Shown here: positions 5,975 to 61,461 of the stretch, piece after piece | How the letters are laid out: each line of letters begins with the position of its first letter | Position numbering within the stretch: the stretch's first letter is position 1 | DNA from: an uncultured Ruminiclostridium sp. | GTDB taxonomy: Bacteria > Bacillota > Clostridia > Oscillospirales > Ruminococcaceae | NCBI GenBank assembly: GCA_947629925.1 | Contig: CANRFO010000008.1 | Span: 14,722 to 78,721 of the forward strand | Length of the DNA stretch: 64,000 bases | Direction of reading: 5' to 3' | Translations under genes and position numbers: made by a program | Notes under the pieces: model-generated | What the model saw: the letters and a program-made list of their open reading frames with translations, nothing else | Database searches by the model: none | Told to the model about the DNA's origin: nothing

Positions 5975-6028
5975 TACGAAAATCCAGAAAATAAAAAGTA
6001 TTCAATACTTTTGTGAGGAGGAATCAGA

Positions 6029-44714: not shown

Positions 44715-46199
44715 TCAAAGATTAGTGTAGCCCAGCAGTGCCTTGTCTACTTCCTTTGCGCACTCGCGCCCCTCTTTTATCGCCCATACCACCAGTGACT
44801 GCCCTCTGTGCATATCGCCGCAGGTAAAGACTTTTGGAACGTTTGTGGAATATTTTCCCGCTTCTGTCTTGACGTTGCTCCTGCCGTCAGTTTCAACGCC
44901 GAAAGCCTTTGTGACATAGCTCTCGCTGCCAAGAAATCCCGCCGCTATAAGCACCAGATTAGCAGGAACGGTGTATTCGCTGTCCTTTATCTCTTTCATT
45001 ACCGTTCTGCCCGTCTTTTTATCAACGGAGGGCTCCAGCTTCACAAGCACAAGCTGTTTCAGATTGCCCCGCTTGTCTTTCACAAATTCCTTCACCGTGG
45101 TCTGATAAACTCTCGGGTCTGCGCCGAAAACGGCCGCCGCCTCTTCCTGACCGTAGTCGGTCTTGCACACCCTCGCCCACTGAGGCCAAGGATTGTTTTC
45201 CGCCCTTTCATCGGGGAGCTTCGGCATCATCTCAAGCTGCAAAACGCTTTTTGCACCGTGGCGTACGGAAGTCCCAACGCAGTCGTTGCCCGTGTCGCCG
45301 CCGCCGATTATAACCACGTGCTTATTTTTTGCGCTGATGAATGTCCCCTCCGCAAGGTCCTTGTCCAACAGGCTCTTTGTGGTGGAGGTGAGAAAATCCA
45401 CCGCAAAGTAAATTCCCTTTGCGTCGCGTCCCTCTGCTGAAATATCACGGGGCTGTGACGCTCCGCAGGCGAGGATAACTATGTCGAAATCCTTCAGCAG
45501 CTTTTCCGCCTCAACGTTTTCACCCACGTTTTTCCCCGTTTCAAAGAGGACGCCCTCTTCTTTCATTATCTCTATGCGCCGTTCTATGATGTGCTTTTCA
45601 AGCTTCATATTGGGTATACCGTACATCAGCAGACCTCCCACCCTGTCGCTCCTCTCAAAGACAGTGACAGAATGTCCCCGCTGATTGAGCTGGTCCGCCG
45701 CCGCAAGCCCCGACGGGCCTGAGCCTATGACGGCTATCTTCTTGCCCGTTCTGACAGCGGGGATATGAGCCTTTGCTATACCCTGCTCGTAGGCGTATTC
45801 AACGATGCCGTATTCGTTCTGCTTTACCGTTACGGGGTCATCGTGAACGCCGCAGGTGCAGGCAGCCTCGCAAAGCGCAGGGCATACTCTACCTGTAAAT
45901 TCGGGGAAATTGTTGGTCTTTCTCAGACGGTTGTACGCCTGCTCCCAGTTTCCTGTGTAAATAAGGTCGTTCCATTCGGGGATAAGGTTGTTCAGCGGGC
46001 AGCCGCTTACCATTCCGCCTATCACCATTCCCGACTGGCAGAAAGGAACGCCGCACGCCATACATCTTGCGCCCTGCTCCTGCTGTTTTTCACGGGACAG
46101 GGGGATATGGAACTCGTCAAAATTTTCTATTCGCTCCTCTGGAGCGACAGCCTCCGCGTTCTCACGCTGAAATTCAAGAAATCCCGTAGGCTTTCCCAT
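44715..46199 (-). CDS. gltD: Glutamate synthase small subunit
   Basis: MGKPTGF, RCMACGVPFC, GCPLNNLIPEWN, GRVCPALCE, GSGPSGL, GGGDTGNDC, GDMHRGQSLVVWAI. Confidence 0.97.
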   Translation of the reverse strand: MGKPTGFLEFQRENAEAVAPEERIENFDEFHIPLSREKQQEQGARCMACGVPFCQSGMVIGGMVSGCPLNNLIPEWNDLIYTGNWEQAYNRLRKTNNFPEFTGRVCPALCEAACTCGVHDDPVTVKQNEYGIVEYAYEQGIAKAHIPAVRTGKKIAVIGSGPSGLAAADQLNQRGHSVTVFERSDRVGGLLMYGIPNMKLEKHIIERRIEIMKEEGVLFETGKNVGENVEAEKLLKDFDIVILACGASQPRDISAEGRDAKGIYFAVDFLTSTTKSLLDKDLAEGTFISAKNKHVVIIGGGDTGNDCVGTSVRHGAKSVLQLEMMPKLPDERAENNPWPQWARVCKTDYGQEEAAAVFGADPRVYQTTVKEFVKDKRGNLKQLVLVKLEPSVDKKTGRTVMKEIKDSEYTVPANLVLIAAGFLGSESYVTKAFGVETDGRSNVKTEAGKYSTNVPKVFTCGDMHRGQSLVVWAIKEGRECAKEVDKALLGYTNL

Positions 46200-46200
46200 A

Positions 46201-49200
46201 TCAGTTTGCCCCCTTTCCGTTTACAATGCTGTAAAACGCTTCTATCTGCGCCTGCTCCTCCGTCATGCCCTTTTCCTCAAAGCTGAGTATGGCGGTGGTC
46301 ATCTTTTTGTAGTCGTGAGGGATAATGCGCTTGAATTTCGGCAGATATTCCTCAAAATTGTCAAGTATCATTTTTCCCTTTTGGGAATTTGTAGCGGCAA
46401 CGTGCTGTTCGATAAGCTCCTTCAGCTCGATTATGTCGTACTTTTCCTTTACCTCGCCGCTGCTTACCATTTCCTTGTTCAATTTCATATACAGATCTCT
46501 GTCCTCGTCAAGAACGTAAGCGATACCGCCGCTCATACCTGCGGCAAAGTTTTTGCCCGTCTTTCCCAGAACAACTACCCGTCCGCCTGTCATATATTCG
46601 CAGCCGTGGTCGCCCACGCCCTCAACTACCGCCACGGCGCCGCTGTTCCTTACGCAGAAACGCTCGCCCGCAACGCCGTTGATGAACGCCTTTCCGCTGG
46701 TAGCGCCGTAAAGGGCAACGTTGCCGATTATGATGTTGTCCTCCGCCTTGAAGGTACATTCAGCGGGAGGATAAACCACTAACTTTCCGCCTGAAAGACC
46801 CTTTCCGAAATAGTCGTTGCTGTCCCCCACAAGCTCAAGCGTCAGACCGTTTGGAATGAATGCGCCGAAGCTCTGACCGCCTGCGCCGTGACAGATAACT
46901 TTAAAGGTATCGTCAGGCAGGGAATCGCCGAATTTTCTCGTTATCTCACTGCCGAGGATAGTGCCCAGAGTGCGGTCGGTGTTCTTTATCTTTATATTCA
47001 CGGTCTTAGGCTTTCCGCTTTTCAGGGAAGAGGAAAATTCCTTAAGCAGTACCTTTTCGTCCACCGTGTTTTCAAGGTTGAAATCGAAAAGCTGTTTTTC
47101 GTGATATTTTACTTCCTCGGAGGTAAATTCCTCGTCGGGGCTGATTATCTTTGACAAATCAAGCTCTGAGCCGTGGCTGTCAAGCCCGCTTTTTCTCTTT
47201 AACAGGTCGTTTCTTCCCACAAGCTCGTCAACGGTGCGGATACCAAGCCTTGCCATATATTCACGCAGCTCCTGCGCCACGAATTTCATAAAGTTTATGA
47301 CGTATTCGGGCTTGCCCGCAAAGCGCTTTCTCAGCTCGGGATTTTGCGTAGCCACGCCGAAAGGACAGGTATCAAGGTTGCACACTCTCATCATAACGCA
47401 GCCCAAGGTTACTAGCGGAGCAGTAGCAAAGCCGTATTCCTCCGCGCCAAGCAGAGCCGCCACAAGCACGTCACGCCCTGTCATCAGCTTGCCGTCCGTT
47501 TCGATGACTACCTTATTTCTCAGCCCGTTCATAATCAGGGTCTGGTGCGCCTCCGCAAGACCAAGCTCCCAAGGCAGTCCCGCATTGTAAATGGAGTTTC
47601 TGGGAGCGGCGCCTGTGCCGCCGTCAAAGCCGCTTATGAGAATTACCGCCGCGCCCGCTTTGGCAACGCCTGCGGCGACTGTTCCGACGCCGCACTCAGA
47701 TACAAGCTTAACGCTTATCCTTGCGTCCTTGTTGGCATTTTTCAGGTCGTAAATAAGCTGAGCCAAGTCCTCTATTGAGTAAATGTCGTGATGAGGAGGC
47801 GGGGAGATAAGTCCCACGCCGGGAGTGGAATGTCTTGTCTTAGCTATCCATGGGTAGACCTTTTTGCCCGGGAGATGTCCGCCCTCACCGGGCTTTGCCC
47901 CCTGCGCCATTTTTATCTGTATCTCCTCAGCGCAGGTGAGATATTTTGAGGTAACGCCGAAACGTCCCGACGCCACCTGCTTTATTGCGGAACAGCGGTC
48001 GTCCTTTGTCCCTCTGCTTTCAAGGCGGTCAAGACTTTCGCCGCCCTCGCCCGAATTGGAACGCCCGTGGAGGGTGTTCATGGCTATCGCAAGGGTCTCG
48101 TGCGCCTCCTGAGAAATAGAGCCGTAGCTCATCGCTCCCGTCTTGAAACGGCGGACAATGCTGTCAACACTTTCCACTTCGTTTATATCTATGCCCTTTT
48201 CGGGGAAGTTAAAGTCCATCAGCCCGCGGAGATTTACAGGCGCCATCTCCTCGTTTATCAGCTTTGAATATTGCTTGTAAAGCTGATAATCGCCCGTTCT
48301 CACCGCCTGCTGGAGCAGGTATATGGTCTGAGGATTGTACAGGTGTTCCTCCTTACAGCTTCTGAACTTGTGACTGCCCCTGCTGTCCAGCGCCTCGTCA
48401 ACGCCCAGCCCCAGCGGGTCGAACGCCATTGTGTGAAGTCTGTCTACGTTGCGCTCAATATCTTTCAACGTAACGCCCTGAACACGGCTGACTGTGCCTG
48501 TGAAGTAGGTGTCTATGACTTCCTTGCTGATACCGATAGCCTCAAATATCTGTGAGCCCTGATAGGACTGTATGGTGCTGATACCCATTTTTGACGCTAT
48601 CTTGACGATCCCATGGAGAACGGCGCTGTCGTAGTCATTTACTGCGGCGTAATAGTCCTTGTCAAGCAGGTCTCTTGAAATAAGGCTTTGTATCGCTTCC
48701 TGTGCAAGATAGGGGTTTACTGCGCTTGCACCGTAGCCTAAAAGCGTTGCAAAGTGGTGTACTTCTCTGGGTTCACCGCTTTCCAGAATCACCGCAAGGG
48801 AAGTCCTCTTTTTGGTAACGACAAGGTGCTGATGCAAAGCGGAAACTGCAAGCAGTGAGGGTATGGCAACGTGGTTCTCATCAACGCCTCTGTCGGACAG
48901 GATAAGTATGCTTGCCCCCTCGCTGTGGGCTTTGTCCGCCTCAAGGTTCAGCCTGTTCAGCGCCTTTTTCAGCGAAGTGTTTTTATAATAAAGTATGGGA
49001 ATGACTGCCACCTTAAAGCCGGGGATATGCATATTCTTTATCTTCAGCATATCGGTGTTGGTGAGAATGGGGTTCTTTATCTTGATTACCTGACAATTCT
49101 CGGGGCGCTCCTCAAGAATGTTACCGTCCTCGCCGATGTATACGGTGGTGGAGGTAACTATCTCCTCTCTTATAGCGTCGATAGGCGGGTTGGTCACCTG

Positions 49201-50745
49201 AGCGAAAAGCTGTTTGAAGTAGTTGAACAGCGGCTGAGGCTGGTCGGAAAGAGCGGCAAGAGGACTGTCCGTACCCATAGCGGCAATGCTCTCAGAGCCT
49301 GTCTTTGCCATAGGCAGGATACTTGTCATAACGTCCTCGTATGTATAGCCGAAGGCTTTCATCAGACGCTTGCGCTCGGCGTACTCGTGGTCGTCCACCT
49401 TGATGTTGGGTATTTTAAGGTCGGAAAGCTGCACCAGATTGCTGTCCAGCCACTCGCCGTAGGGCTGTCTTGAGGCGTAGCTCTCTTTCAGCTCGTTGTC
49501 GTCGATAACCCTTCCCTGAACGGTATCAACAAGGAGCATTTTGCCGGGGCGGAGCCTTTCCTTTTCAACAATGGACTGCGGGTCTATCTCCAAAGCTCCC
49601 ACCTCGGAGGAGAGAATGAGAAAACCGTCCTTTGTGATGTAGTAGCGGGAGGGGCGCAGACCGTTTCTGTCCAGAACAGCGCCCATAATGTCGCCGTCGC
49701 AGAACAGTATTGATGCGGGACCGTCCCACGGCTCCATCATCGTGGCGTAATACTGATAGAAATCACGCTTTGTCTTGCTGATAGTCTCGTTGTTGTCCCA
49801 AGGCTCGGGTATGGTTATCATAACGGCAAGGGGAAGGTCCATACCGCTCATTACCAGAAATTCAAGGGTGTTGTCCAGCATGGCGGAGTCACTGCCCTCG
49901 GTGTTCACAACGGGGAGAACCTTGTCAAGGTCGCCCTTTAAATGCTCGGACTTCATAGTTTCCTCACGGGCGAGCATTTTGTCGGCGTTGCCCTTTATGG
50001 TGTTTATCTCGCCGTTATGTACTATCATTCTGTACGGATGGGCTCTCTGCCAGCTGGGATTTGTGTTGGTGGAGAAACGGGAATGTACCATAGCGATAGC
50101 GGTCTCGTAGTCCTTGTCCTGAAGATCGGGGAAAAACCTTCTCAGATCCTGCACAAGGAACATTCCCTTATATACGATAGTGCGGCTTGACAGGGAAACG
50201 ACGTAAGTGTCCTCGTTGCTCTGCTCGAAAACGCGCCTTGCAACGTACAGCTTGCGGTCGAAGTCAAGGCCCCTGCGCACGTCGGCGGGACGCTTGATAA
50301 AGCACTGCATAATGCAGGGCATACATTCCACCGCCCGCTGACCCAGCACCTCGGGAACAGACGGCACCTGCCGCCAGCCCAGCACTTCAAGCCCTTCCTT
50401 GTCGGCGATTATCTCAAACATCTTCTTCGCCTGATTGCGGGCCAGCTCGTTCTGCGGGAAGAAGAACATTCCCACGCCGTAATCCCGTTCGCCGCCAAGC
50501 TCTATGCCTATCTTTGCCGCTGTTTTCTTAAAGAATTTGTGGGAAATTTGCAGCAGTATTCCCACGCCGTCGCCTGTTTTGCCCTCGGCGTCCTTTCCTG
50601 CTCTGTGTTCCAGCGTTTCAACTATGGTCAAGGCGTTTTCCACCGCCTTGTGGGATTTTTTGCCCTTGATGTTCACCACTGCGCCGATACCGCAGTTGTC
50701 GTGTTCAAATTCGGGTGAATACAGGGTATTTTTTTGCGTTTCCAT
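46201..50745 (-). CDS. gltB: Glutamate synthase large subunit
   Basis: EHDNCGIG, HSRFSTNT, HNGEINT, EPWDGPA, AMSYGSIS, IKMAQGAKPGEGG, SPPPHHDIYSIEDL, CVMMRVCNLDTCP, GERFCVRNSG. Confidence 0.98.
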   Translation of the reverse strand: METQKNTLYSPEFEHDNCGIGAVVNIKGKKSHKAVENALTIVETLEHRAGKDAEGKTGDGVGILLQISHKFFKKTAAKIGIELGGERDYGVGMFFFPQNELARNQAKKMFEIIADKEGLEVLGWRQVPSVPEVLGQRAVECMPCIMQCFIKRPADVRRGLDFDRKLYVARRVFEQSNEDTYVVSLSSRTIVYKGMFLVQDLRRFFPDLQDKDYETAIAMVHSRFSTNTNPSWQRAHPYRMIVHNGEINTIKGNADKMLAREETMKSEHLKGDLDKVLPVVNTEGSDSAMLDNTLEFLVMSGMDLPLAVMITIPEPWDNNETISKTKRDFYQYYATMMEPWDGPASILFCDGDIMGAVLDRNGLRPSRYYITKDGFLILSSEVGALEIDPQSIVEKERLRPGKMLLVDTVQGRVIDDNELKESYASRQPYGEWLDSNLVQLSDLKIPNIKVDDHEYAERKRLMKAFGYTYEDVMTSILPMAKTGSESIAAMGTDSPLAALSDQPQPLFNYFKQLFAQVTNPPIDAIREEIVTSTTVYIGEDGNILEERPENCQVIKIKNPILTNTDMLKIKNMHIPGFKVAVIPILYYKNTSLKKALNRLNLEADKAHSEGASILILSDRGVDENHVAIPSLLAVSALHQHLVVTKKRTSLAVILESGEPREVHHFATLLGYGASAVNPYLAQEAIQSLISRDLLDKDYYAAVNDYDSAVLHGIVKIASKMGISTIQSYQGSQIFEAIGISKEVIDTYFTGTVSRVQGVTLKDIERNVDRLHTMAFDPLGLGVDEALDSRGSHKFRSCKEEHLYNPQTIYLLQQAVRTGDYQLYKQYSKLINEEMAPVNLRGLMDFNFPEKGIDINEVESVDSIVRRFKTGAMSYGSISQEAHETLAIAMNTLHGRSNSGEGGESLDRLESRGTKDDRCSAIKQVASGRFGVTSKYLTCAEEIQIKMAQGAKPGEGGHLPGKKVYPWIAKTRHSTPGVGLISPPPHHDIYSIEDLAQLIYDLKNANKDARISVKLVSECGVGTVAAGVAKAGAAVILISGFDGGTGAAPRNSIYNAGLPWELGLAEAHQTLIMNGLRNKVVIETDGKLMTGRDVLVAALLGAEEYGFATAPLVTLGCVMMRVCNLDTCPFGVATQNPELRKRFAGKPEYVINFMKFVAQELREYMARLGIRTVDELVGRNDLLKRKSGLDSHGSELDLSKIISPDEEFTSEEVKYHEKQLFDFNLENTVDEKVLLKEFSSSLKSGKPKTVNIKIKNTDRTLGTILGSEITRKFGDSLPDDTFKVICHGAGGQSFGAFIPNGLTLELVGDSNDYFGKGLSGGKLVVYPPAECTFKAEDNIIIGNVALYGATSGKAFINGVAGERFCVRNSGAVAVVEGVGDHGCEYMTGGRVVVLGKTGKNFAAGMSGGIAYVLDEDRDLYMKLNKEMVSSGEVKEKYDIIELKELIEQHVAATNSQKGKMILDNFEEYLPKFKRIIPHDYKKMTTAILSFEEKGMTEEQAQIEAFYSIVNGKGAN

Positions 50746-51365: not shown

Positions 51366-52739
51366 TCAACTATCAGCTGCCAATTTCCCGCTGTCAACCA
51401 CCTCATTATACTTCTTCTTCATTCCATGCATTTTTATATTATAGATGATAACCAAGAACACCGTCGCCGCCGACCACGCCACAGGCGACGCAAAGCACGC
51501 CGCGTCAAATCCGAACACGGGCACGAACCCCAGCGATACCACCGCTCTTGCGATAAGCTCGCTTGCTCCCGCCATCATAGGGAGCAGTGAAAATCCCAGC
51601 CCCTGCAAGCCGTTGCGGGTGATGAACAGTATGGAAAGCACAGGATAGAATATGGCGTTTATCCCGATAAAGTACACCGCCTGGCTGATGACCTCCGTTT
51701 CCTCGGCGTCAACGAACAGCAGACACAGCGGACCGCTGAATATCCACACCACCGTCGCCGCCGCAAGAGAGTAGATAAGCCCGCAGGCAAATGCACGGTG
51801 CATTCCCTGAGTTATGCGGGGTATCTTTCCTGCGCCTAAATTCTGCCCGCCGTAGGTCGCCATAGTGATACCCAGCGTTTCCATAGGCGCCACCATCATA
51901 TTCTGCATTTTGCTGGCGGCAGTTACGGCGGCAACGTACACCTTGCCCAGACTGTTAACTGCGCTTTGCAGCAGGATAGAGCCGATAGCGGTTATGGAAA
52001 ACTGAAGTCCCATAGGGACGCTTATCCTTGTCAGCGCCAATATCCGATTTCCCGAAAAGGCAAGCTCCCCCTTTTCAAAGCGGAGTATAGGGTAGCTCCT
52101 TCTCATATAAATAAGGCAGAGAACGCCCGAGATGCCTTGAGAAATGACCGTTGCCCAGCCTGCTCCCGCCACGCCCATATTAAATACTATTATAAATAAA
52201 AGGTCAAGCCCTATATTGATTATTGAGGAAAGTATGAGAAAGTACAGCGGCGTTCTGCTGTCCCCCATAGCGCGGAGTATCCCCGCCATAAGATTGTACA
52301 TCATTGTGACGCATATCCCGCCGAAGATGACAACTATGTAATCGTAAGCAAGGTCGATTATGTCGGCGGGCGTCTGCATTATCTGCAAAAGGGGATAGCA
52401 CAGCGATACCGCCAGCGCCGTCACGATAACGGTAGTTATGGCGCAAAGGTAAATGGCATTTGCTATCATTTTTCTCATTTCGGAATAATTCCCGCCGCCG
52501 AAGTGCTGGGCGGGTAGTATGCAGGAGCCGCTGGTTATCCCTGTTGTGAAGCCGATGATGAGAAAGCTCACCGAACCTGTCGAGCCCACCGCCGCCAGGG
52601 AATCCACGTCTATGAACTTGCCCACGATTATGGTATCAACCATGCTGTAAAGCTGCTGAAACAGGTTACCCAAAAGCATAGGCAGGCAAAAGCCCAGTAT
52701 CAGGGACAAGGGTTTTCCGTGGGTCATTTCCTTTACCAT
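51366..52739 (-). CDS. MATE-family efflux transporter
   Basis: PMLLGNLFQQLYSMVDTIIVG, LRAMGDSRTPL, NIGLDLLFI..GVAGAGWAT, GQNLGAG; about 12 TM helices. Confidence 0.93.
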   Translation of the reverse strand: MVKEMTHGKPLSLILGFCLPMLLGNLFQQLYSMVDTIIVGKFIDVDSLAAVGSTGSVSFLIIGFTTGITSGSCILPAQHFGGGNYSEMRKMIANAIYLCAITTVIVTALAVSLCYPLLQIMQTPADIIDLAYDYIVVIFGGICVTMMYNLMAGILRAMGDSRTPLYFLILSSIINIGLDLLFIIVFNMGVAGAGWATVISQGISGVLCLIYMRRSYPILRFEKGELAFSGNRILALTRISVPMGLQFSITAIGSILLQSAVNSLGKVYVAAVTAASKMQNMMVAPMETLGITMATYGGQNLGAGKIPRITQGMHRAFACGLIYSLAAATVVWIFSGPLCLLFVDAEETEVISQAVYFIGINAIFYPVLSILFITRNGLQGLGFSLLPMMAGASELIARAVVSLGFVPVFGFDAACFASPVAWSAATVFLVIIYNIKMHGMKKKYNEVVDSGKLAADS

Positions 52740-52967
52740 AGCGCCGTCTCCTTTCAATATATTGTGTCTGCGATCGTCTTTATACTATTTTACATATTTT
52801 TTCCTTTTTTGCAATAGTTTTCTTGCCGTTTCTCGGCTTTTCGTGTATAATAAATTTGTAATATTTTACCATTGTCCTTGATTATAACAAAAAAGTTTCA
52901 GCAATACAGTGAAAAAATTATAGTGAAATTCTACAAAATTTTCCTTATAAAATTTCTAAAAATGATA

Positions 52968-52996
52968 TTGCAAAATACATCATATAGTGGTATAAT
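52968..52996 (+). promoter_or_regulatory. Sigma-A promoter with an NrdR-box-like sequence in its spacer
   Basis: TTGCAA-17 bp-TATAAT; 52975-52990 atacatcatatagtgg matches the NrdR consensus acaCwAtATaTwGtgt at 12 of 16 positions. Confidence 0.55.
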
Positions 52997-53069
52997 ACAA
53001 AACGGACAACAAAATAAGCTTGTTACCAAATAAAATTTTATAAATTCAAAATACGGAAAGGAAAACAAA

Positions 53070-53375
53070 ATGGTTAAAGTAAATGTTATCGGCGGCGTTC
53101 TTACCGACGCAGAAAAAGAAGCTTATGTACAGAGAGCAAGAACTCTTTATCCCGAAAAGCGCATCAGCGAAATGAATATCACCGTTGTTGACGATAATTA
53201 CGTTGATATAGAGTATCATTACGACACAACGCCCTTCCAGCGTATCCGCCGTATCACGGGATACCTTGTAGGTACACTTGACCGTTTTAACGACGCAAAG
53301 CGCGCTGAAGTAGGCGACAGAGTAAAGCACAGCGTTACCGTTTCCAATTTTGAAGATGTTTATATGGACGCGTGA
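53070..53375 (+). CDS. Stand-alone NrdD C-terminal glycyl-radical domain protein
   Basis: 101 aa, strong RBS; RIRRITGYLVGTLDRFNDAKRAEVGDRVKH matches the class III RNR glycyl-radical loop; no Cys, no catalytic barrel; monocistronic. Confidence 0.8.
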   Translation: MVKVNVIGGVLTDAEKEAYVQRARTLYPEKRISEMNITVVDDNYVDIEYHYDTTPFQRIRRITGYLVGTLDRFNDAKRAEVGDRVKHSVTVSNFEDVYMDA

Positions 53376-53422
53376 TAGGCTGTCAGAAGTAAAGTTTTGA
53401 TTTTTCCCCCTAATGCATAATT

Positions 53423-53460
53423 AAAAAAACACAGGTTTTTCATGAAAACCTGTGTTTTTT
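53423..53460. terminator. Bidirectional terminator (family-B core)
   Basis: aaaaaaacacaggttttt-catg-aaaacctgtgtttttt between convergent genes. Confidence 0.75.
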
Positions 53461-53482
53461 ATGTCCGATGATTTCAGTCAGC

Positions 53483-54307
53483 TCAGAAGATCAGCTCAGG
53501 GTCAAGGATATCAAGTCGGAATAATGCTTCCAGCAGCCATGCGTCCTCACATTCGTCCCGCCACTGTTCGGGTATCTCCTTGTACGGCTGAAGCGTGGGG
53601 CAAGGCGCGCCTTCCTGCCATGCGTTGAGATGCTCGTGATAAGGCGCTCCCGGGTCTCTCGTGAACACGATCGACAGGTTGCCGCCGTTATTTTCCAGTT
53701 CCTCAACTGTAACGTTTATCCTGCCGTTTATCCCGTTATAGGCGCCGTTTTCGCCGCCCATTTCGCCTGCGCCTGTCCAGCCTGCTCCTTCAAGATAAAC
53801 CATGTCTACCACTGCGTATTGGTCTGCGGTGCCGCCTGCTATGACATAATTTTCGTACCCCGTGTCCTCGTTGACGTAAGAGTAGATATAAGGCGTCTGC
53901 CTGTCTATAAGGTCGGTGATGTCGATCCTTGTGTTTTCGATGCTGAAGTACAGTCTGCCGTCCTCAAGGGTGAGCAGGTCGGAATAATCTTCATTTTTTA
54001 CGTTCAGTTCATAGCCGTAAGCTCCGCCGTGCTGTTCGTATTCAAAAACAGTGCCTGTGGCGGAGGTGATCGTATGCTTCGGAAACTGAGCTTTCGCCAC
54101 GACCGTTCCCGTCATGGCGAGCGCCGCCGCTGCCGCTGCCGCTATCATCACCTTGGACAGCGGCTTTACCTTGGTCTTTTTCGCAGGCTTTACCTGCTCC
54201 ATAACGGTTTTCAGGACTTTTTCGGTATCCGCTCCCGCTTCGCCCTCAAGGTTGAACTCGTTGTCCGTGTAGTTGTCCATAAGTCGGGAAATATTTATTT
54301 CTTTCAT
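53483..54307 (-). CDS. ECF partner (putative anti-sigma factor) 4, single TM
   Basis: N-terminal ISRLMDNYTDNEF, basic patch, Ala-rich TM, extracytoplasmic domain; ATGA-coupled to the sigma gene. Confidence 0.7.
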   Translation of the reverse strand: MKEINISRLMDNYTDNEFNLEGEAGADTEKVLKTVMEQVKPAKKTKVKPLSKVMIAAAAAAALAMTGTVVAKAQFPKHTITSATGTVFEYEQHGGAYGYELNVKNEDYSDLLTLEDGRLYFSIENTRIDITDLIDRQTPYIYSYVNEDTGYENYVIAGGTADQYAVVDMVYLEGAGWTGAGEMGGENGAYNGINGRINVTVEELENNGGNLSIVFTRDPGAPYHEHLNAWQEGAPCPTLQPYKEIPEQWRDECEDAWLLEALFRLDILDPELIF

Positions 54308-54840
54308 TCTGTGTAACCCTCCTTCTCAAGAATATCTTTCAGCTTCTCCCTGCCTCTGCAAAGCCATGCCTTGGCAGTAGACAGATTTATCTGCATTTCT
54401 TCGGCGGCTTCTTTTACCGTCTGCCCGTAGTAATAGTGCCGCACGAAAAGCTCCCTGTGAGGCTTTTCAAGCTGTGACAGCGCTTTTTCCAGCAGTATCG
54501 CGGCGTCGGTATGCTCTGCCGCTTCTTCAACGCTCCGCTCCTCAATAAATATCACGCCTTCCTCTAAAGGAAGATCCTCGTGCAGGCCGCGAAGCCTGAC
54601 AAAAGCCTTGTTGCGGGCGACTGAGCCTAAAAAGCCCTTTATCTTTCCCTCCTGAAGCTTCCCGCGGCTGTTCCATGCCACAAGAAAGACTTCGGAGGTA
54701 AGCTCCTCGCAGTCCTCCGTCCTGCCGCCCAATATGCGCCTTATTATTGAGGAGACATACGCCGTGTAGCGTCTTATAAGCTCCTCAAGCGCGGCAGTAT
54801 CGCCTTTTTGCAGAGCTTTCAGAAGCTCCTGCTCGGTCAC
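54304..54840 (-). CDS. ECF sigma-70 factor 4
   Basis: Region 2 DCEELTSEVFLVAW..FLGSVARNKA; region 4 RELFVRHYYYGQTVKEAAEEMQINLSTAKAWLCRGREKLK; GTG start after AGGAGG. Confidence 0.92.
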   Translation of the reverse strand: MTEQELLKALQKGDTAALEELIRRYTAYVSSIIRRILGGRTEDCEELTSEVFLVAWNSRGKLQEGKIKGFLGSVARNKAFVRLRGLHEDLPLEEGVIFIEERSVEEAAEHTDAAILLEKALSQLEKPHRELFVRHYYYGQTVKEAAEEMQINLSTAKAWLCRGREKLKDILEKEGYTE

Positions 54841-55004
54841 GGCGTTCACCTCCTGATACGCTTGCTTCTGAAGTACTTCTGTTATAATATCACATTTTTG
54901 AGGCTTTTGGTTGCAAATGTGCGAAAAATTTCAAAAATCACCTCCGCTGTAAAAGGGAACGCCGCTTTTCTGATTCGGTTTCGGCTTTCCTTTTTTGCAA
55001 AACA

Positions 55005-55033
55005 AAAAGCCTGTAAAAAATTACAGGCTTTAA
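55005..55033 (-). terminator. Terminator between ECF pairs 3 and 4
   Basis: aaaagcctgt-aaaaaatt-acaggctttt. Confidence 0.7.
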
Positions 55034-55056
55034 AATTATTCTTTTAAATAACTGTA

Positions 55057-55737
55057 TCAGTCATTGATATATATGCTGACGGTCCCGTCCTCGTTCTCAA
55101 CGCGGGTAACGGAATCCTCATCCACAACCTTAAGCTCCAGCTCCTGTCCGTCCTCGGTGACGAGCTTGCCGTTTTCAAAGTTGTAGGTCACTGTTTTCTC
55201 AGCGGAAACGACGTCGCCGTTCACGGTGTAGGTCACGTTATCATCAAGCGAACCCTCGTATTGGATCTCGATGTCGTCGCTGTCTATTTCGCTGTTGCTT
55301 TCCAGCGATCCGTCGTATCGGATCCTGACGTCATAGTCGTCTGCTGTAATATCGCTGTCATACAGTATCTTTATGTCGTCGCTGTCCACCTCCTGAATTT
55401 CAAGCACGTTTCCGTCCTCGTCAATGATCTTTCCGTCATCAACGAAGGTGTAGGTCTTGAGCGCCTCGGAAGAAACGGCTTTTCCGTCCACGGTATAAGT
55501 TACCCATACTTCATGCACAGCGGTGGCGGCGGCGGAGACCGCTCCAGTCAGCGCAGCTGCCGCAGCGACAGCTATAAGCGCCTTGAACAGCGGCTTTACC
55601 TTTGTTTTCTTCTTGGGGCTTATTCGCTCCGTAACGGCTTTTATCGCCTTTTCGGCGTCCACCGTCTGCTGCCCCTCAAGAAACAGCTCGTTATCCGTAT
55701 AATCATTCATAAGCTCTGAAATTTTTAATTCTTTCAT
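55057..55737 (-). CDS. ECF partner (putative anti-sigma factor) 3, single TM, internally duplicated acidic domain
   Basis: KISELMNDYTDNEL, Ala-rich TM; two copies of VTYTV(D/N)G..V S..TY.F..GK...EDG..LE...VD. Confidence 0.7.
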   Translation of the reverse strand: MKELKISELMNDYTDNELFLEGQQTVDAEKAIKAVTERISPKKKTKVKPLFKALIAVAAAAALTGAVSAAATAVHEVWVTYTVDGKAVSSEALKTYTFVDDGKIIDEDGNVLEIQEVDSDDIKILYDSDITADDYDVRIRYDGSLESNSEIDSDDIEIQYEGSLDDNVTYTVNGDVVSAEKTVTYNFENGKLVTEDGQELELKVVDEDSVTRVENEDGTVSIYIND

Positions 55738-56261
55738 ACTGTGTAACCTTCTTTCTCAAGAATATCTTTCAGCTTTTCCCTGCCTCTGCAAAGCCATGTT
55801 TTGGCGGTGGAAAGGTTCAGCTCCATTTCCTTTGCCGCTTCACAGAGCGTCTGCCCGTAGTAATAATGCCGCACAAACAGCTCACGCTGTTTTGTCTCAA
55901 GCTGTGACAGCGCCTTTTCTATCAGCAGGGCGGTGTCTACGTTCTCGCTTTCCTCCGTCCTGTCAAGAACTATTATATCCTCCTCCAGCGGCAGGCTTTC
56001 ATGCCTTGTCTTCAGCAGGTTGAACGCCTTGTTCCTCGCCACCGTTCCCAGCCAGCTTTTAAGCTTTCCCTCCTGAAGAATGCTGCGGTTCTCCCACGCG
56101 GCGGTGAAAACGTCGTAGGTCAGCTCCTCGCAATCCTCGGCGCTCCCTCGTACTATCCTGCCGACTATGGAGGAAACATAGCGGATATAGCGGCGGATAA
56201 GTTCTTCAAGAGCGGCTGTTTCTCCTTTGTGAAGAGAAGCTATCAGTTCCTCCTCGCTCAA
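55734..56261 (-). CDS. ECF sigma-70 factor 3
   Basis: DCEELTYDVFTAAW..WLGTVARNKA; RELFVRHYYYGQTLCEAAKEMELNLSTAKTWLCRGREKLK; TTG start 56261 after AAGGAGG. Confidence 0.92.
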   Translation of the reverse strand: MSEEELIASLHKGETAALEELIRRYIRYVSSIVGRIVRGSAEDCEELTYDVFTAAWENRSILQEGKLKSWLGTVARNKAFNLLKTRHESLPLEEDIIVLDRTEESENVDTALLIEKALSQLETKQRELFVRHYYYGQTLCEAAKEMELNLSTAKTWLCRGREKLKDILEKEGYTV

Positions 56262-56362
56262 GCGCAGTCCCTCCTTTCGCGGAATGTTTCCGAAGTACTT
56301 CTGTATATAATAACAATCGGGAAAGGCAAAAAGTTTCAAAAGAAAAAATTTTTCAAAAAAAT

Positions 56363-56388
56363 AACAGCCTGTGAAAATCACAGGCTGT
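56363..56388 (-). terminator. Terminator between ECF pairs 2 and 3
   Basis: acagcctgtga-aaa-tcacaggctgt with an A-tract on the plus strand. Confidence 0.65.
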
Positions 56389-56420
56389 CGGAAAAATTAT
56401 GGGATCTGAACCGCGCCGAA

Positions 56421-57218
56421 TCAGGGAAGCAGCGCAGGGTCAATCATATCAACGCTCAGCATCGCGTTGAGCAGCCAAGCGTCCATGCACTCGTCGCGCC
56501 AATTGTCGGGAACGTCGGTGGAGGTCACCTGACCGTCGGAAAATACGATGAAGTGTGAATGATAAGGCCAACCGCCCTCTACGGGGTGGACCTCGCCGTT
56601 TTCTCTCACATAGCTCTTTCTGAAGGATATACGCACTACATCTTCTTCAACGTCTGCTGATACGGCGTTTCCGTCTATGCTGTCCATGCAGCCGTATCCG
56701 CTCCAGCCGATACCGTCAAGGTAGGAAAAGTCTACCATGCAGTATTCTTCGGGAGTTCCGCCAAGAACGATATAGCTCTTTCTTCCAGTGTCCGCATTGG
56801 TGTAGGCGTAGATATAAGGCGTTTGGTTGTCGATAAGGTCGGTGACGTCGGTGGTATTGTCCCCTAATCTGAATATCAGTCTTCCGTCCTCAAGAGTTAA
56901 TATGTCGGCTTGATTTCCCGCGGTCGCTGATATGTTGTATCCGTCCTCATGCACCTCATAGTTATAGATAGAGCCTGAGGCGTCGGAAAGCTGTCCGCTG
57001 ATCACCGCTGCCGCCGCTGTCGCTCCCACGGCAAGCGCTGCCGCTGCCGCCACTGCAATCATTATCTTTGCCGCGGGCTTTATTTTGGTCTTCTTCCCGC
57101 TTACGTTCTCGATAACGTTTTCTTTGATCTTGTCCATATTTACCTCGCTTTCTTCATCAATGAAAAATTCATTGTCGGTATAGTTATCCATAAGCTGAGA
57201 TATTTTTATTTCCGTCAT
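56421..57218 (-). CDS. ECF partner (putative anti-sigma factor) 2, single TM
   Basis: KISQLMDNYTDNEFF, Ala-rich TM, EDGRL..DVTDLIDNQTPYIY..YIVLGGT domain. Confidence 0.7.
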   Translation of the reverse strand: MTEIKISQLMDNYTDNEFFIDEESEVNMDKIKENVIENVSGKKTKIKPAAKIMIAVAAAAALAVGATAAAAVISGQLSDASGSIYNYEVHEDGYNISATAGNQADILTLEDGRLIFRLGDNTTDVTDLIDNQTPYIYAYTNADTGRKSYIVLGGTPEEYCMVDFSYLDGIGWSGYGCMDSIDGNAVSADVEEDVVRISFRKSYVRENGEVHPVEGGWPYHSHFIVFSDGQVTSTDVPDNWRDECMDAWLLNAMLSVDMIDPALLP

Positions 57219-57748
57219 AATGAATAACCTCCCTTTTCAAGTGTTTCTTTCAGCTTTTCCCTTCCGCGGGAAAGCCATGTCTTTGCGGTGGAAAAATTCA
57301 GCTTCATTTCCTCCGCCGCCTCTTTGACGGTCTCGCCGTAGTAATAGTGCCTTACGAACAGCTCCCGCTGTTTCGGCTCAAGCTGTTGGAGCGCCTCGTT
57401 CAGGAGCGCAGCAGTGTCCGCCTGCTCCGCCGCTTCCATCGGGTCTTCCCCGCTGAAAAGCAGATCCTCCTCAAGAGGAAGCTCTTCCTTCGCGCTTCGC
57501 AGGAAGTTGAACGCCCTGTTTCGGGCGATAGCGCCCAGATAGGCTTTAAGGTTCCCCTCCCGCAGCTCGCTCCTGTTGTTCCATACGGCGACAAAAACGT
57601 CCTGCGTCAGTTCCTCGCAGTCGCACGAACGCCCGCGCAATATTCTCGCAAGAACGGAATAAACGTACCTGCCGTAGCTGTCCATAAGCTGTTCAAGGGC
57701 TTTTATGTCGCCCCTTTTCAGCCTCGGGACTATCTCACGTCCGCCCAT
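57215..57748 (-). CDS. ECF sigma-70 factor 2
   Basis: DCEELTQDVFVAVW..YLGAIARNRA; RELFVRHYYYGETVKEAAEEMKLNFSTAKTWLSRGREKLK. Confidence 0.92.
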   Translation of the reverse strand: MGGREIVPRLKRGDIKALEQLMDSYGRYVYSVLARILRGRSCDCEELTQDVFVAVWNNRSELREGNLKAYLGAIARNRAFNFLRSAKEELPLEEDLLFSGEDPMEAAEQADTAALLNEALQQLEPKQRELFVRHYYYGETVKEAAEEMKLNFSTAKTWLSRGREKLKETLEKGGYSL

Positions 57749-57855
57749 TGACTGCTCCTTTCATATGATGAAGTCGGCTTCATATATCATAACACATTTT
57801 TTGGGAAAAGGGTTGCATTTTATAAAAAAATTCAAAAAATAAAAAGGCTGTTTAT

Positions 57856-57901
57856 AGCCGCCCCGCCATAGGAAAACCTGTGTTTTCCTATATCAGTGCG
57901 G
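57856..57901. repeat. REP-like repeat, family B, nested in a terminator loop
   Basis: gccgccccgccataggaaaacctgtgttttcctatatcagtgcggc enclosed by aaaaggctgt...acagcctttt. Confidence 0.65.
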
Positions 57902-57945
57902 CTTTTCACAGCCTTTTCAAAAGCATTTTAATTTTTATAATTCCA

Positions 57946-58620
57946 TCATCTGTTCACTGAAAATTCCATTATCTGTTCAATGTCCAGTCCCACGAGCCTG
58001 CCCTCGCTTTGAAGCTGTTTCATTCCGTTTATCTCCCAGTCATACATTTCCAAACGGTCGTTGGGGCCAATAGTTCTGACTGCGTAACTCATACCCCATT
58101 CACCGTCAAAAAGAGTATAGGAATCATAACCGTATTCATTAGGCGTTCCGCCTATAACTATATAGTTTTCGGCATTGTCAACATCAGCGGGTTGGTCGTG
58201 ACATTTGTAGATATAAGGCGTTTCCTCATCTATAAGGTCAGTTATGTCTGTCTTGCCGCCGTCAGCCGTTAAATAAAGCCTTCCGTTTTCCTCCAGCACA
58301 ACTGCCTCCATGTTGGTATTTGAGCTGTGGTGATACTTATATTCGTTGCCATTCACGTCTATATAGTAACCGTGATCCGTGCCGTCAAGACCGGTAAAAA
58401 TTATACGCTGTGCCGCCGCGCCCATTACAGCGGTCAAAGCCGCTGCTGCCGCTACCGCGGCTATTATTATCTTTTTCGCGGGCTTGCCGCGTTTTTTCAC
58501 ATTTTTCAGTACAATATCCTTTATCTCCTCGTTCTGCACTTCGGTTTCTCCCTCTATGCAGAACTCATTGTCGGTGTAATCGTCTAAAAGCTCACTTATT
58601 TTCACAGTTTTGCTCTCCAT
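57946..58620 (-). CDS. ECF partner (putative anti-sigma factor) 1, single TM
   Basis: KISELLDDYTDNEF, Ala-rich TM, ENGRL..DITDLIDEETPYIY..YIVIGGT domain. Confidence 0.7.
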   Translation of the reverse strand: MESKTVKISELLDDYTDNEFCIEGETEVQNEEIKDIVLKNVKKRGKPAKKIIIAAVAAAAALTAVMGAAAQRIIFTGLDGTDHGYYIDVNGNEYKYHHSSNTNMEAVVLEENGRLYLTADGGKTDITDLIDEETPYIYKCHDQPADVDNAENYIVIGGTPNEYGYDSYTLFDGEWGMSYAVRTIGPNDRLEMYDWEINGMKQLQSEGRLVGLDIEQIMEFSVNR

Positions 58621-59155
58621 AGTCGTAACCCTCCTTCAGTAAAATTTCTTTCAAAGTCTGCCGCCCTCGGCAAAGCCTTGTTTTTGCGGCGGAAAGGGAA
58701 AGTCCCAAAGCGTCCGCCGCCTCCGCCACGCTTTGCCCGTAATAGTAATGCCGCAGGAAAAGCTCTTTCGTGATCGGCTCAAGGCCGTTTACCGCCCTGT
58801 TCACAAGAAGTGCAGTCTCTTTTCGCTCCACCGCCTCGCAGGGCTGTTCGCCCTCGTCGAAAATTATCATATCCTCTTCAAGGGGAAGCTCCTCCCGCTC
58901 GTTTCTCAGCTTGTTGAAAGCCTTGTTGCGGGCGGCGGCGCCGAGATAGCCTTTCAGATTTTCAGCCCTCAGCTTTTCCCTGTTTTCCCAGACGGCAAGG
59001 AAAACGTCTGCCGAAAGCTCTCTGCAATCCTCGTTCCTGCCGCGGAGTATGCGGGAGATGACTGATGAAACGTATGCTCCGTATCTGTCGATAAGCTGCT
59101 CAAGGGCTTTTGTCTTCCCTTTCTTCAGTCCGTTCACTATGTCGCCGTCGGTCAT
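58592..59155 (-). CDS. ECF sigma-70 factor 1
   Basis: DCRELSADVFLAVW..YLGAAARNKA; KELFLRHYYYGQSVAEAADALGLSLSAAKTRLCRGRQTLK. Confidence 0.92.
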   Translation of the reverse strand: MTDGDIVNGLKKGKTKALEQLIDRYGAYVSSVISRILRGRNEDCRELSADVFLAVWENREKLRAENLKGYLGAAARNKAFNKLRNEREELPLEEDMIIFDEGEQPCEAVERKETALLVNRAVNGLEPITKELFLRHYYYGQSVAEAADALGLSLSAAKTRLCRGRQTLKEILLKEGYDYGEQNCENK

Positions 59156-59367: not shown

Positions 59368-61461
59368 TCAGTTTACGCTGAACAGCAGGTCGGAATAAGT
59401 GGGGATAGGCCAGTAATCTGCTCCTACAACAGTTTCAAGCTCATCTGCTACCGCTCTCAATGACTGCATTGAAGCAAACACGGTGTCATGGAAGAACTTT
59501 GCGTTCTCCATAACGTCAGTGATTGCGTGAGCCTTTGCGATAAGCTCTTCAAGCTCCTTGATATGAGCGTTCAGGCTGTCTGCAAGGGAGATGACCTTCT
59601 GCGCAAGCTCGGTCTCTGCGCCCGCCTTGAATCCTGCCGCTTTCTTGGAGGCAACTGCGTCGCAGATGTCCTTTTCAAACTTCAGGACTGCGGGGAGTAT
59701 CTGGCGCTTTGCCATGTCAACGGTGGTCTGAGCCTCGATGTTCAGCACCTTTTCGTAGTTTTCAAGGAGAGTTTCCGTTCTTGAATGTATCTCTATCTCG
59801 CTGAATACCTTATGCTTTGTGAACAGCTTTACGTTCGCCTCGTCCTCGAAGTGAGGAACTGCGTCCACGGTGGAAACAAGGTTGGGAAGTCCTCTCTTCT
59901 TTGCCTCCTCTATCCAGCTTGCGTCATAGCCGTTGCCGTTGAAGATTATCCTCTTATGCTCGGTGAAGGTCTTGATGAGCAGGGCGTTCAGCGCAGACTT
60001 GAAGTCGGGAGCTTTTTCCAGTTCGTCTGCAAATTCGCACAGTGCGTCCGCAACGATGGTGTTAAGTACGATGTTGGGTCCCGCTATGTTAAGAGTAGAG
60101 CCTACGCTCCTGAACTCGAACTTGTTGCCTGTGAATGCGAAAGGAGAAGTCCTGTTTCTGTCGGTGGTGTCCTTGGGGAAGGTGGGGAGAGTGGATACGC
60201 CGATGTCAAACTGCTTGTGCAGGTCTTTCGTGTGGCTGCCGCTTACCAGAGCCTCGATAACGTCGGTCAGCTCTTCGCCTAAGAATACGGAGATTATTGC
60301 GGGAGGAGCCTCGTTTGCGCCAAGTCTGTGGTCGTTGCCTGCGCTGGCTACGGAAAGTCTGAGCAGGTCGGCGTGTTCGTCAACCGCCTTGATTATCGCC
60401 GCAAGGAATGTAAGGAACTGCGCGTTCTCGATAGGAGAATCGCCGGGGTTCAGCAGGTTCTGTCCGTCGTTGGTGGACAAAGCCCAGTTGTCGTGCTTGC
60501 CTGAGCCGTTAACGCCTGCAAAAGGCTTTTCGTGGAGCAGGCAGGCAAGGCCGTGCTTTTTCGCTACCTTCTGCATAAGCTCCATTGTGAGCTGATTGTG
60601 GTCGGCGGCAAGGTTGGCGTTCTCAAATACGGGCGCGCATTCGTGCTGTGCGGGAGCGACCTCGTTATGCTTGGTCTTGGAGGGAACGCCCAAATTCCAC
60701 AGCGTTCTGTCAAGATCCTTCATATAGTCGCTTACTCTCTGCTTTATAGTGCCGAAGTAGTGGTCTTCAAGCTCCTGACCTTTAGGAGGCGCCGCGCCGA
60801 AAAGGGTGCGTCCTGTGAAGATAAGGTCCTTTCTCTTGCTGTAAAGCGCCTCATCCACAAGGAAATATTCCTGCTCAGCGCCAACGGTTGCAACTACTCT
60901 CTTGGTAGTCATATTCCCGAACAGGCGGAGTATACGCAGCGCCTGATTTGAAACTGCGTCCATAGAGCGGAGCAGAGGGGTCTTTTTGTCCAGCGCCTCG
61001 CCTGAGTATGAGCAGAACGCAGTGGGTATATAAAGGGTGTTATCCTTTACGAAAGCGTATGAAGTGGGATCCCATGCGGTATAGCCTCTCGCCTCGAAGG
61101 TGGCTCTCAGTCCGCCTGAGGGGAATGAAGACGCGTCAGGCTCGCCCTTGATAAGCTCCTTGCCTGAAAATTCCATTATAACGGTGCCGCCCTTCTGGGG
61201 GTTGATAAAGCTGTCGTGCTTTTCGGCGGTTATTCCCGTCATAGGCTGGAACCAGTGGGTGTAGTGAGTGGCGCCCTTTTCGATAGCCCAATCTTTCATA
61301 GCGTGGGCAACAACTGCGGCAACGGAGCTGTCAAGCTCGGTGCCCGACTCGATAGTGTCCATCAGCGCCTTGTAGGTGCCCTTTGGCAGGCGCTCTCTCA
61401 TTGTTTCGGCGTTAAAGGAATCGCAGCCGAAATTTTCTCTTACGTCATAATTTTCTGACAT
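59368..61461 (-). CDS. glnA: Glutamine synthetase type III
   Basis: [91 protein letters not shown]. Confidence 0.97.

Follow-up and report, generated by a model that had tools for sequence, protein, structure and literature searches.

A stand-alone protein carrying the glycyl-radical loop of class III ribonucleotide reductase, a candidate back-up or trans-acting radical domain in gut Clostridia and gut phages

Results

The gene and its product

The stretch of DNA considered here, 64,000 nucleotides of contig CANRFO010000008.1 from an uncultured Ruminiclostridium sp. (referred to below as the window), carries on its forward strand a gene whose 101-amino-acid (aa) product bears the glycyl-radical loop of NrdD, the class III ribonucleotide reductase (RNR), on a polypeptide of its own. 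The gene is real and part of a very large, uncurated family. The initial annotation had described a monocistronic gene with its own promoter, ribosome-binding site and terminator, encoding an NrdD loop in its C-terminal half and an unrelated N-terminal half, devoid of Zn-binding cysteines and of a catalytic barrel, with no nrdG or nrdD remnant nearby and with a site matching the NrdR box at 12 of 16 positions in the promoter spacer. Each of these observations has stood, the transcriptional ones upon inspection of the open reading frame (ORF), a promoter scan and folding, and the others through the comparisons given below, with the understanding that "unrelated" means without detectable homology and that the NrdR site draws support from enrichment across the whole family.

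The identity of the loop is documented by several profiles and by a structure. A Pfam scan at E<=1 returned NRDD (PF13597) and a spurious Pinin match only, leaving PF01228 unmatched; residues 55-87 align with positions 532-562 of the 562 in the NRDD profile at 29.1 bits, against a gathering score of 26.2. The NCBIfam NrdD equivalogs (TIGR02487, NF005497) are likewise matched over their last ~36 positions, at 28-43 bits against cut-offs of 326-764, so that of NrdD profiles 562 to 746 positions long only the last ~31-36 find a counterpart. Residues 56-87 align without a gap to residues 707-738 of Prevotella copri NrdD (PDB 8P23), ITGY falling on ITGY. The C-terminal NrdD motif RxxGY...RVxH is present and invariant within the family, and in an alignment of 28 sequences (A1) 18 of the 32 loop positions, Gly64 included, do not vary. 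As the match is confined to the end of the NRDD profile, the ten-stranded alpha/beta barrel with its finger-loop catalytic Cys is absent, and the protein contains no cysteine at all, hence neither a Cys4 Zn ribbon nor a finger-loop Cys.

The N-terminal domain is predicted by AlphaFold2 (AF2) to fold as beta1-alpha1-beta2-beta3 over residues 3-51, with a predicted local distance difference test (pLDDT) score of ~76-83 for residues 1-50, and its residues E15, Y19, R22, P28 and D41 are invariant in A1. In a profile-profile comparison of A1 with NrdD the loop alone aligned and the N-domain did not; an N-domain profile built from 236 sequences reached only E = 0.14 over 5 columns against 120 NrdD C-termini, and a Foldseek search of the PDB with the AF2 model returned nothing at E<=0.001. 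PHROGs, Pfam and NCBIfam hold no dedicated family for the small protein or for its N-domain. A derivation of this domain from the last beta-alpha-beta unit of NrdD, suggested by an alignment made by eye and by a tblastn extension in locus L073, was dropped. As a separate observation, the tail ...NFEDVYMDA is conserved in the subclade of the window protein, and the pattern QQ[NE]FEDVY[VIM]D recurs in four longer proteins (P0126, P0127, P0169, P0185) in which unrelated N-terminal regions, with the appearance of mobile genetic elements (MGE) or phages, precede the fused family domain.

NrdDs that have lost the loop

The strongest evidence that the loop may act in trans is the loss of the loop in cis, as read from NrdD sequences. 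In a clade of NrdDs related to that of locus L021, 24 of 120 among the matches listed lack RxxGY and stop soon after a degenerate ...ER[IL][RK]R remnant (e.g., ...ERIRRI), with at least five different tails. In all four of the loop-less NrdDs checked (P0360, P0275, P0341 and P0378, the first with 254 member sequences from the Clostridium sp. CAG:465 lineage) the small gene lies directly downstream and is followed by nrdG (loci L094 and L096-L098). These NrdDs retain the MGCR finger-loop Cys, the CxxCG of the Zn ribbon and NHPVD, and the ratio of nonsynonymous to synonymous substitution rates (dN/dS), 0.15-0.2, equals that of NrdDs bearing the loop.

The same arrangement is found in viruses. 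Of the 80 best viral loci in IMG/VR, 17 have the gene order nrdD, small gene, nrdG (L113, L122-L130, L140, L142, L150, L151, L167, L168 and L170), and in the other 63 the small gene is without nrdD nearby. The nrdD-bearing loci belong to gut phages of ~30-67 kb, with phrog_4291 (polymerase-like), a phrog_62 helicase and a phrog_3953 exonuclease in the flanks, and their nrdD has no ATP-cone. Wherever the C-terminus of the phage NrdD was read (9/9 loci) the glycine loop is missing; five of the nine end in ...RRIK or ...RRLK, just before the expected TGY, and the others in different tails, while in several loci the small gene overlaps the nrdD stop. Among annotated phages and plasmids, the small gene was met on unannotated faecal contigs only, and full NrdD loops elsewhere.

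A further and more reduced case is provided by PLSDB record OY725842.1 (L099), where a 759-aa loop-less nrdD, a 53-aa ORF and nrdG follow one another at 3601-6659. The 53-aa product, MAQIETNIEAKNGKGVGFERIRRITGYLVGTLDRFNDAKRAEEHDRVKHGMQH, has its own ribosome-binding site and is essentially the loop alone, with no N-domain. The record bears the label Subdoligranulum variabile "plasmid 8", but its NrdD is 100% identical to that of Ruthenibacterium lactatiformans, which suggests a mislabelled fragment of a chromosome. Among the matches listed, all 120 R. lactatiformans NrdDs (P0391-P0510) are 759 aa long and loop-less, and the 53-aa peptide (P0511; EHL75629.1 and others) occurs on at least 1000 contigs, one of them a 4.42-Mb genome. 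A homologue search seeded with the "Subdoligranulum" NrdD yielded R. lactatiformans only, with no link to Ruminococcus-type genomes.

The loop-less NrdD remains under selection, and the small loop gene and the activase gene adjoin it in every case examined, a combination that is difficult to account for unless the NrdD loop works in trans. Oxygen cleaves the chain of E. coli NrdD at the radical glycine, and the natural stubs ending in ...RRI therefore resemble the oxygen-cleaved product.

NrdDs that keep the loop beside a small gene

In 79 of 80 genome loci there is no nrd gene within 10 kb of the small gene. The exception, L021, has in order a complete nrdD (779 aa), the small gene (94 aa), nrdG and nrdR. 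Relatives of the L021 NrdD, from a low-GC Clostridia clade, led to further operons with this order (L087/88, L089, L092, L093, L094, L096, L097 and L098), and L090 and L095 have nrdD-nrdG without the small gene. The NrdD keeps its own loop beside the small gene in L021, L087, L089, L092 and L093. There, the loops of the two neighbouring proteins are identical at 32/32 positions in L021 and L089 and at 30/32 in L087, and yet differ at 6-9 synonymous codons, such that recent gene conversion is not the cause of the identity. Variable loop positions co-vary with the partner; among the 120 permutations of the five operons, 3 fit equally well.

Two features of these operons are recorded for their own sake. 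Short tails rich in Cys (SECNCD, ECSCAEF, DCSCF, KCDCDNK, SVCC; L021 at 4640-4983, L092, L093 and L094) are frequent at the C-termini of both the NrdD and the small protein, and recall the redox-active Cys pairs found at the C-terminus in other RNR classes. In addition, an operon resembling that of Clostridium sp. CAG:1219 has an extra Pfam-less ORF between nrdD and the small gene (L087 5333-5986, 217 aa; L088 5333-6067, 244 aa) with an N-terminal hydrophobic segment.

The stand-alone arrangement could be followed in a cultured organism. In a run of a Ruminococcus flavefaciens isolate (X45, 3.9 Mb), the stand-alone gene (L076) lies on a contig of its own at a depth of 403.7, and a second contig of 87 kb, at a depth of 402.4, matches the loop only (10161-10267). 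On the latter the loop is preceded by ...(C)GRKEHSNNVG, the end of an NrdD Zn ribbon (compare L089), and followed by ...TAAATGAATATCAGGATTGCCGG, a stop, and then MNIRIAG, an nrdG-type start; the two loops show eight internal differences, all at third codon positions. Read from these sequences, the stand-alone small gene of R. flavefaciens coexists with a complete NrdD that keeps its own loop, which is a GrcA-like arrangement.

A comparison of the source rabbit-gut metagenome (X1/X2) with window positions 53250-53330 also recovered a 34-kb contig with a second loop-coding sequence, reading ...SGGVGFERIR before the loop and ending in ...SV and a stop, at a depth of 13 as against 8.9 for the contig of the window. 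This contig is not assignable to the source organism; it probably carries the nrdD or a mini-peptide of another organism, or else, possibly, the source organism's own nrdD.

Distribution, selection and transcription of the family

The family is defined here as the N-domain plus loop, about 85-105 aa in length, and the window protein is similar to it over its full length. A word-indexed search gave, among the matches listed, homologues P0001-P0120 of 88-167 aa with 57-99% identity over 83-100% of the query, mostly from Ruminococcus and Oscillospiraceae and labelled either "hypothetical" or, wrongly, "anaerobic ribonucleoside-triphosphate reductase". When 1.84 billion cluster representatives were searched with a profile, 2622 reached E<=1e-3 and 1524 the stricter E<=1e-10; of the best 150 matches, nearly all align end to end and have lengths of 84-140 aa. 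With one genome scanned per GTDB species, at least 597 species carry the family; isolates with the small gene include R. flavefaciens FD-1 and ATCC 19208 and Ruminococcaceae FB2012. At least 552 viral contigs in IMG/VR also encode a member.

The orthologues in L007 and L008 share 76-80% protein identity with the window protein, and full-length comparison with these two sequences, which are of equal length, gave dN/dS values of 0.095 and 0.108. An ungapped, anchored estimate for the N-domain over all loci has a median of 0.55, a figure inflated by a one-residue indel and by saturation, and the L007 and L008 estimates are used in its place. In three RNA runs (metatranscriptomes), the assembled transcript contigs within a 2.5-kb stretch cover the 101-aa gene only, spanning 53060-53407 (X21), and the neighbouring genes are without contigs; the RNA contigs differ from the window at five positions, all of them third codon positions.

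Predicted NrdR boxes

The candidate box 1 abuts the -10 hexamer, an arrangement of box followed by TATAAT that recurs in many relatives, and the block TTGCAA...ACAxCATATAGTGGTATAAT is invariant in the window, L007 and L008 while its flanks diverge. The candidate box 2 resembles the second box of relatives (CCACAAAATAA...) and lies at the canonical offset of 31-32 bp. Published NrdR architecture comprises two 16-bp boxes joined by a linker of 15-16 bp (PMC13584703). Six positions in all 64 kb of the window score 12/16 or higher.

For an enrichment test, the upstream 170 nt were taken for 72 family genes of the stand-alone type, and 266 intergenic windows of the same loci served as controls. A best box of at least 12/16 was found in 69% of the stand-alone loci and 6% of the controls, of at least 13/16 in 51% and 1.1%, and of at least 14/16 in 22% and 0%, respectively. 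The distance from box to box peaks at 31-33 bp, and a clear pair is present in 25 of the 72 loci, where box 1 typically adjoins the -10 and box 2 lies across the start site. The nrdD promoters of the data set have boxes of 14-16/16. The strong enrichment of predicted boxes thus appears to tie the stand-alone family genes to the NrdR regulon.

Two other NrdR-box-like sites in the window score 13/16, neither with an obvious partner box. One, GCACAATATATGGTGC (1018-1033), is upstream of an ABC-transporter ATPase gene (1260-2000), and the other, TTTCAATATATTGTGT (52752-52767), lies at the start of a MATE efflux gene (51366-52757), 223 bp upstream of box 1.

Features and neighbourhood of the locus

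The features of the locus are collected in Table 1.

Table 1. Positions in the window of the 101-aa gene, its protein segments and its predicted signals
Feature	Position	Strand	Basis
Coding sequence of autonomous NrdD-type glycyl-radical protein, 101 aa + stop, ATG start	53070..53375	+	ORF, profile matches, dN/dS, RNA
N-terminal family-specific domain, residues 1-52, predicted beta-alpha-beta-beta	53070..53225	+	AF2, conservation
NrdD glycyl-radical loop, residues F56-H87, FQRIRRITGYLVGTLDRFNDAKRAEVGDRVKH	53235..53330	+	Pfam, NCBIfam and PDB matches
Codon GGA of Gly64, predicted radical glycine of the RITGY motif	53259..53261	+	Alignment to P. copri NrdD; invariant in A1
C-terminal acidic/aromatic tail SVTVSNFEDVYMDA	53331..53372	+	Conserved in the subclade of the window protein and in MGE/phage-like fusion proteins
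-35 hexamer TTGCAA	52968..52973	+	Promoter scan 10/12, 17-nt spacer; invariant in L007 and L008
Candidate NrdR box 1, ATACATCATATAGTGG, in promoter spacer, abutting -10	52975..52990	+	12/16 to ACACWATATATWGTGT
-10 hexamer TATAAT with upstream TG (TGgTATAAT), extended -10	52991..52996	+	Promoter scan
Weak candidate NrdR box 2, CAACAAAATAAGCTTG, 32 bp after box 1	53007..53022	+	8/16 to consensus
Ribosome-binding site GGAAAGGA, 7 nt between its end and ATG	53055..53062	+	Read from sequence
Bidirectional intrinsic terminator hairpin, A run before, U run after	53426..53458	.	Folding

The terminator hairpin, common to the 101-aa gene and to a convergent gene at 53483-54307, has 15 bp and a stability of -19.9 kcal/mol in the fold of 53405-53470 (z = -7.4, with 0/200 shuffles equally stable). 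It was missed by a consensus terminator scan and detected by folding, and Rfam gave sub-threshold matches only. A tblastn search with NrdD, NrdG and NrdR over the 64-kb window found no second match besides the 101-aa gene, and Pfam found no nrdD, nrdG or nrdR among the large ORFs of the window.

Directly downstream, on the opposite strand (53483-59155), are four tandem pairs, each consisting of a sigma factor of extracytoplasmic function (ECF) type (Sigma70_r2/r4) followed by a putative anti-sigma factor, a Pfam-less protein of 224-274 aa with a hydrophobic stretch at its centre. The region is flanked by ordinary nitrogen-assimilation genes bearing no relation to the 101-aa gene (44715-50745 and 59368-61461), among them a glutamate synthase small-subunit-like protein (494 aa), a type III glutamine synthetase (697 aa), and a 1514-aa ORF which we take, as read from its sequence, to be the glutamate synthase large subunit.

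Discussion

The present data are consistent with a model in which class III RNR is widely an enzyme of two polypeptides. It is likely that the radical then resides on a subunit of ~50-100 aa, obligatory where NrdD is loop-less (R. lactatiformans, Clostridium sp. CAG:465 / Christensenellales-like gut lineages and the gut phage group) and spare where the loop is kept (Ruminococcus and, probably, the source organism). The central idea of the initial annotation, that an NrdD loop may be delivered by a separate polypeptide, is thereby supported, and both of the states that it had proposed occur in relatives: the split NrdD in L094, L096-L098, the phage loci and R. lactatiformans with its 53-aa peptide, and the spare part in L021, L087, L089, L092, L093 and the R. 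flavefaciens isolate. Its further concern, whether the gene is conserved and selected, is answered by purifying selection at a dN/dS of ~0.1 and by a family widespread in species genomes and viral contigs.

For the window gene itself, this model proposes a GrcA-like back-up radical domain for NrdD, with the loop on its own polypeptide, and on balance this reading is probably correct. NrdR would repress the small gene jointly with the ribonucleotide reductase genes. Upon synthesis of the protein, the NrdD activase NrdG may install the radical on Gly64, after which the loop could enter the barrel of the class III RNR, replacing the C-terminal loop of the catalytic subunit itself, and the inserted loop would generate the active-site thiyl radical. 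In this manner the back-up domain could restore the synthesis of deoxyribonucleoside triphosphates (dNTPs) after oxygen has cut the NrdD loop at the radical glycine, or when that loop is otherwise not activated, and repair of oxygen damage may be the selective benefit. The role of spare part is assigned to the window protein because its gene stands alone as in R. flavefaciens, whose NrdD keeps its loop.

An alternate scenario, possible though rather doubtful, would make the 101-aa protein the obligate small subunit of a split enzyme. The NrdD of the source organism would in that case be loop-less, and the small protein, encoded away from nrdD, would be its sole source of the glycyl radical and essential. 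Split NrdDs are indeed common in related lineages and phages, and co-regulation by NrdR would match the expression of an unlinked subunit to that of nrdD. However, in all of the split cases found the small gene is immediately 3' of nrdD, often overlapping its stop, and none is stand-alone; further, the sole genome of the stand-alone type checked, that of R. flavefaciens, has an NrdD with its own loop. The spare-part role is preferred to the obligate one with restraint, since the R. flavefaciens evidence comes from one isolate. Improbable by comparison is a function as regulator or decoy, in which the protein would modulate NrdD activation by competing for NrdG with NrdD, or by serving as a radical store, without joining the catalytic enzyme itself. 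The protein does carry the loop recognized by the activase, is co-regulated and co-located with nrdG, and has an N-domain without an assigned role, but such a function fails to explain why, in each case examined, a glycine-less NrdD with an intact active site stays under selection beside a small loop gene, or why phages carry a loop-less nrdD together with the small gene.

Two further possibilities receive still less weight. That the protein is a spare part or cofactor for another glycyl-radical enzyme, such as pyruvate formate-lyase (PFL), would accord with the fact that GrcA-type spare parts are known for PFL only, and is nonetheless very hard to reconcile with a loop that is NrdD-specific (RITGYLVG...RVKH), matches PF13597 and not PF01228, and is identical to the loop of the neighbouring NrdD, as well as with the linkage to nrdD, nrdG, nrdR and NrdR boxes. 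Least credible of all is that the gene is an annotation artefact, or a remnant without function left by a partly duplicated nrdD. While only ~35 residues resemble a known protein, and while sources call the protein "hypothetical" or mis-name it as a full RNR, its whole length is conserved in hundreds of species at a dN/dS of about 0.1, and the gene is transcribed and has its own conserved promoter, operator and terminator.

Several points nevertheless weigh against the interpretation as a back-up domain for NrdD. The Zn ribbon, which is absent from the window protein, is required for in-cis radical generation in the NrdDs of E. coli and T4; in the split systems it remains on NrdD. The second NrdR box of the window is weak at 8/16, the co-variation of partner loops was assessed on just five operons, and the coexistence of the spare type with a complete NrdD in a stand-alone genome is documented from one isolate. 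The loop region of the AF2 model is of low confidence (pLDDT 41-59). With the nrdD of the source organism not among the sequences recovered, the role of spare part is the more probable one here and that of obligate subunit the less probable. Finally, the mechanism as a whole is one that we infer, from the activation by NrdG and the docking to the repair of oxygen damage and the parts played by the N-domain and the FEDVY tail.

Oxygen cuts glycyl-radical enzymes at the radical glycine, and the damage is irreversible. If the model holds, the enzyme to which strict anaerobes owe all of their DNA precursors would have a widespread candidate spare part in this family. The family would also be the first case, beyond the formate-lyases, of a radical subunit that acts as a spare part or in trans, and one that phages carry to service NrdD. 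In R. lactatiformans and in phages, the loop-less NrdDs together with the small loop protein and NrdG amount to a natural truncated NrdD plus spare part, and because they are naturally paired, trans-complementation becomes directly testable. R. lactatiformans and R. flavefaciens offer cultured systems with the split and the spare arrangement, respectively. The annotation of class III RNR is affected as well, since small proteins are mis-named as full RNRs or called "hypothetical" and loop-less NrdDs are called complete. The model would further bear on the recovery of oxygen-sensitive gut commensals after exposure to oxygen and on phage auxiliary metabolism, and would extend the NrdR regulon.

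Comparison with known systems

The only known remedy for an oxygen-cut glycyl-radical enzyme is GrcA/YfiD for pyruvate formate-lyase. According to a review of June 2026, the formate lyases are the sole glycyl-radical enzymes with spare parts, and whether others have them is "yet to be determined"; similarly, in a 2021 paper in the Journal of Biological Chemistry, YfiD and Y06I are the only validated autonomous cofactors. The full-text literature searched, which does not extend to subscription journals, yielded no account of class III RNR being served by a separate glycyl-radical subunit or by a spare part.

The closest parallel to the small protein is thus found in GrcA/YfiD of E. coli and Y06I of phage T4, which are likewise small, stand alone, and repeat in their C-terminal part the glycyl-radical domain of a large glycyl-radical enzyme. 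In both systems the gene lies away from that of the enzyme and has its own regulation, phage versions exist, and the N-terminal part is without a counterpart in the enzyme; the action proposed for both is, by analogy, the same, namely activation by the activase followed by replacement of the oxygen-cleaved loop. The two differ in family, in that the small protein matches the C-terminus of PF13597 with RITGY whereas GrcA (IPR011140) is PFL-like, with PF01228 and RVSGY. The target here would be class III RNR, the predicted regulator is NrdR, and the N-terminal part is predicted to be folded (beta-alpha-beta-beta), that of GrcA being disordered. Moreover, many NrdD lineages have lost their own loop, so that the small protein is apparently obligatory, a situation for which no PFL/GrcA counterpart was met. 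Relative to NrdD itself (PF13597, TIGR02487, PDB 8P23), residues 56-87 correspond to the C-terminal loop, with identity of up to 32/32, but the small protein is without ATP-cone, barrel, finger-loop Cys and Zn ribbon and cannot reduce nucleotides alone.

Two other systems provide only loose precedents. In the split class II RNR NrdJa/NrdJb a C-terminal functional module of an RNR also exists as a separate polypeptide; however, the part split off there is non-homologous, a Zn-finger plus an IscU-like re-reduction module and not the radical site. The nrdD of T4-like and Aeromonas phages (e.g., phiAS4), divided by introns or fragmentation, is likewise encoded in pieces, but the interruptions there fall inside the catalytic body, whereas in the present system the second copy of the loop comes from a distinct small gene that encodes an extra domain as well, and a degenerate ...ERIRRI remnant persists at the end of the NrdD stub.

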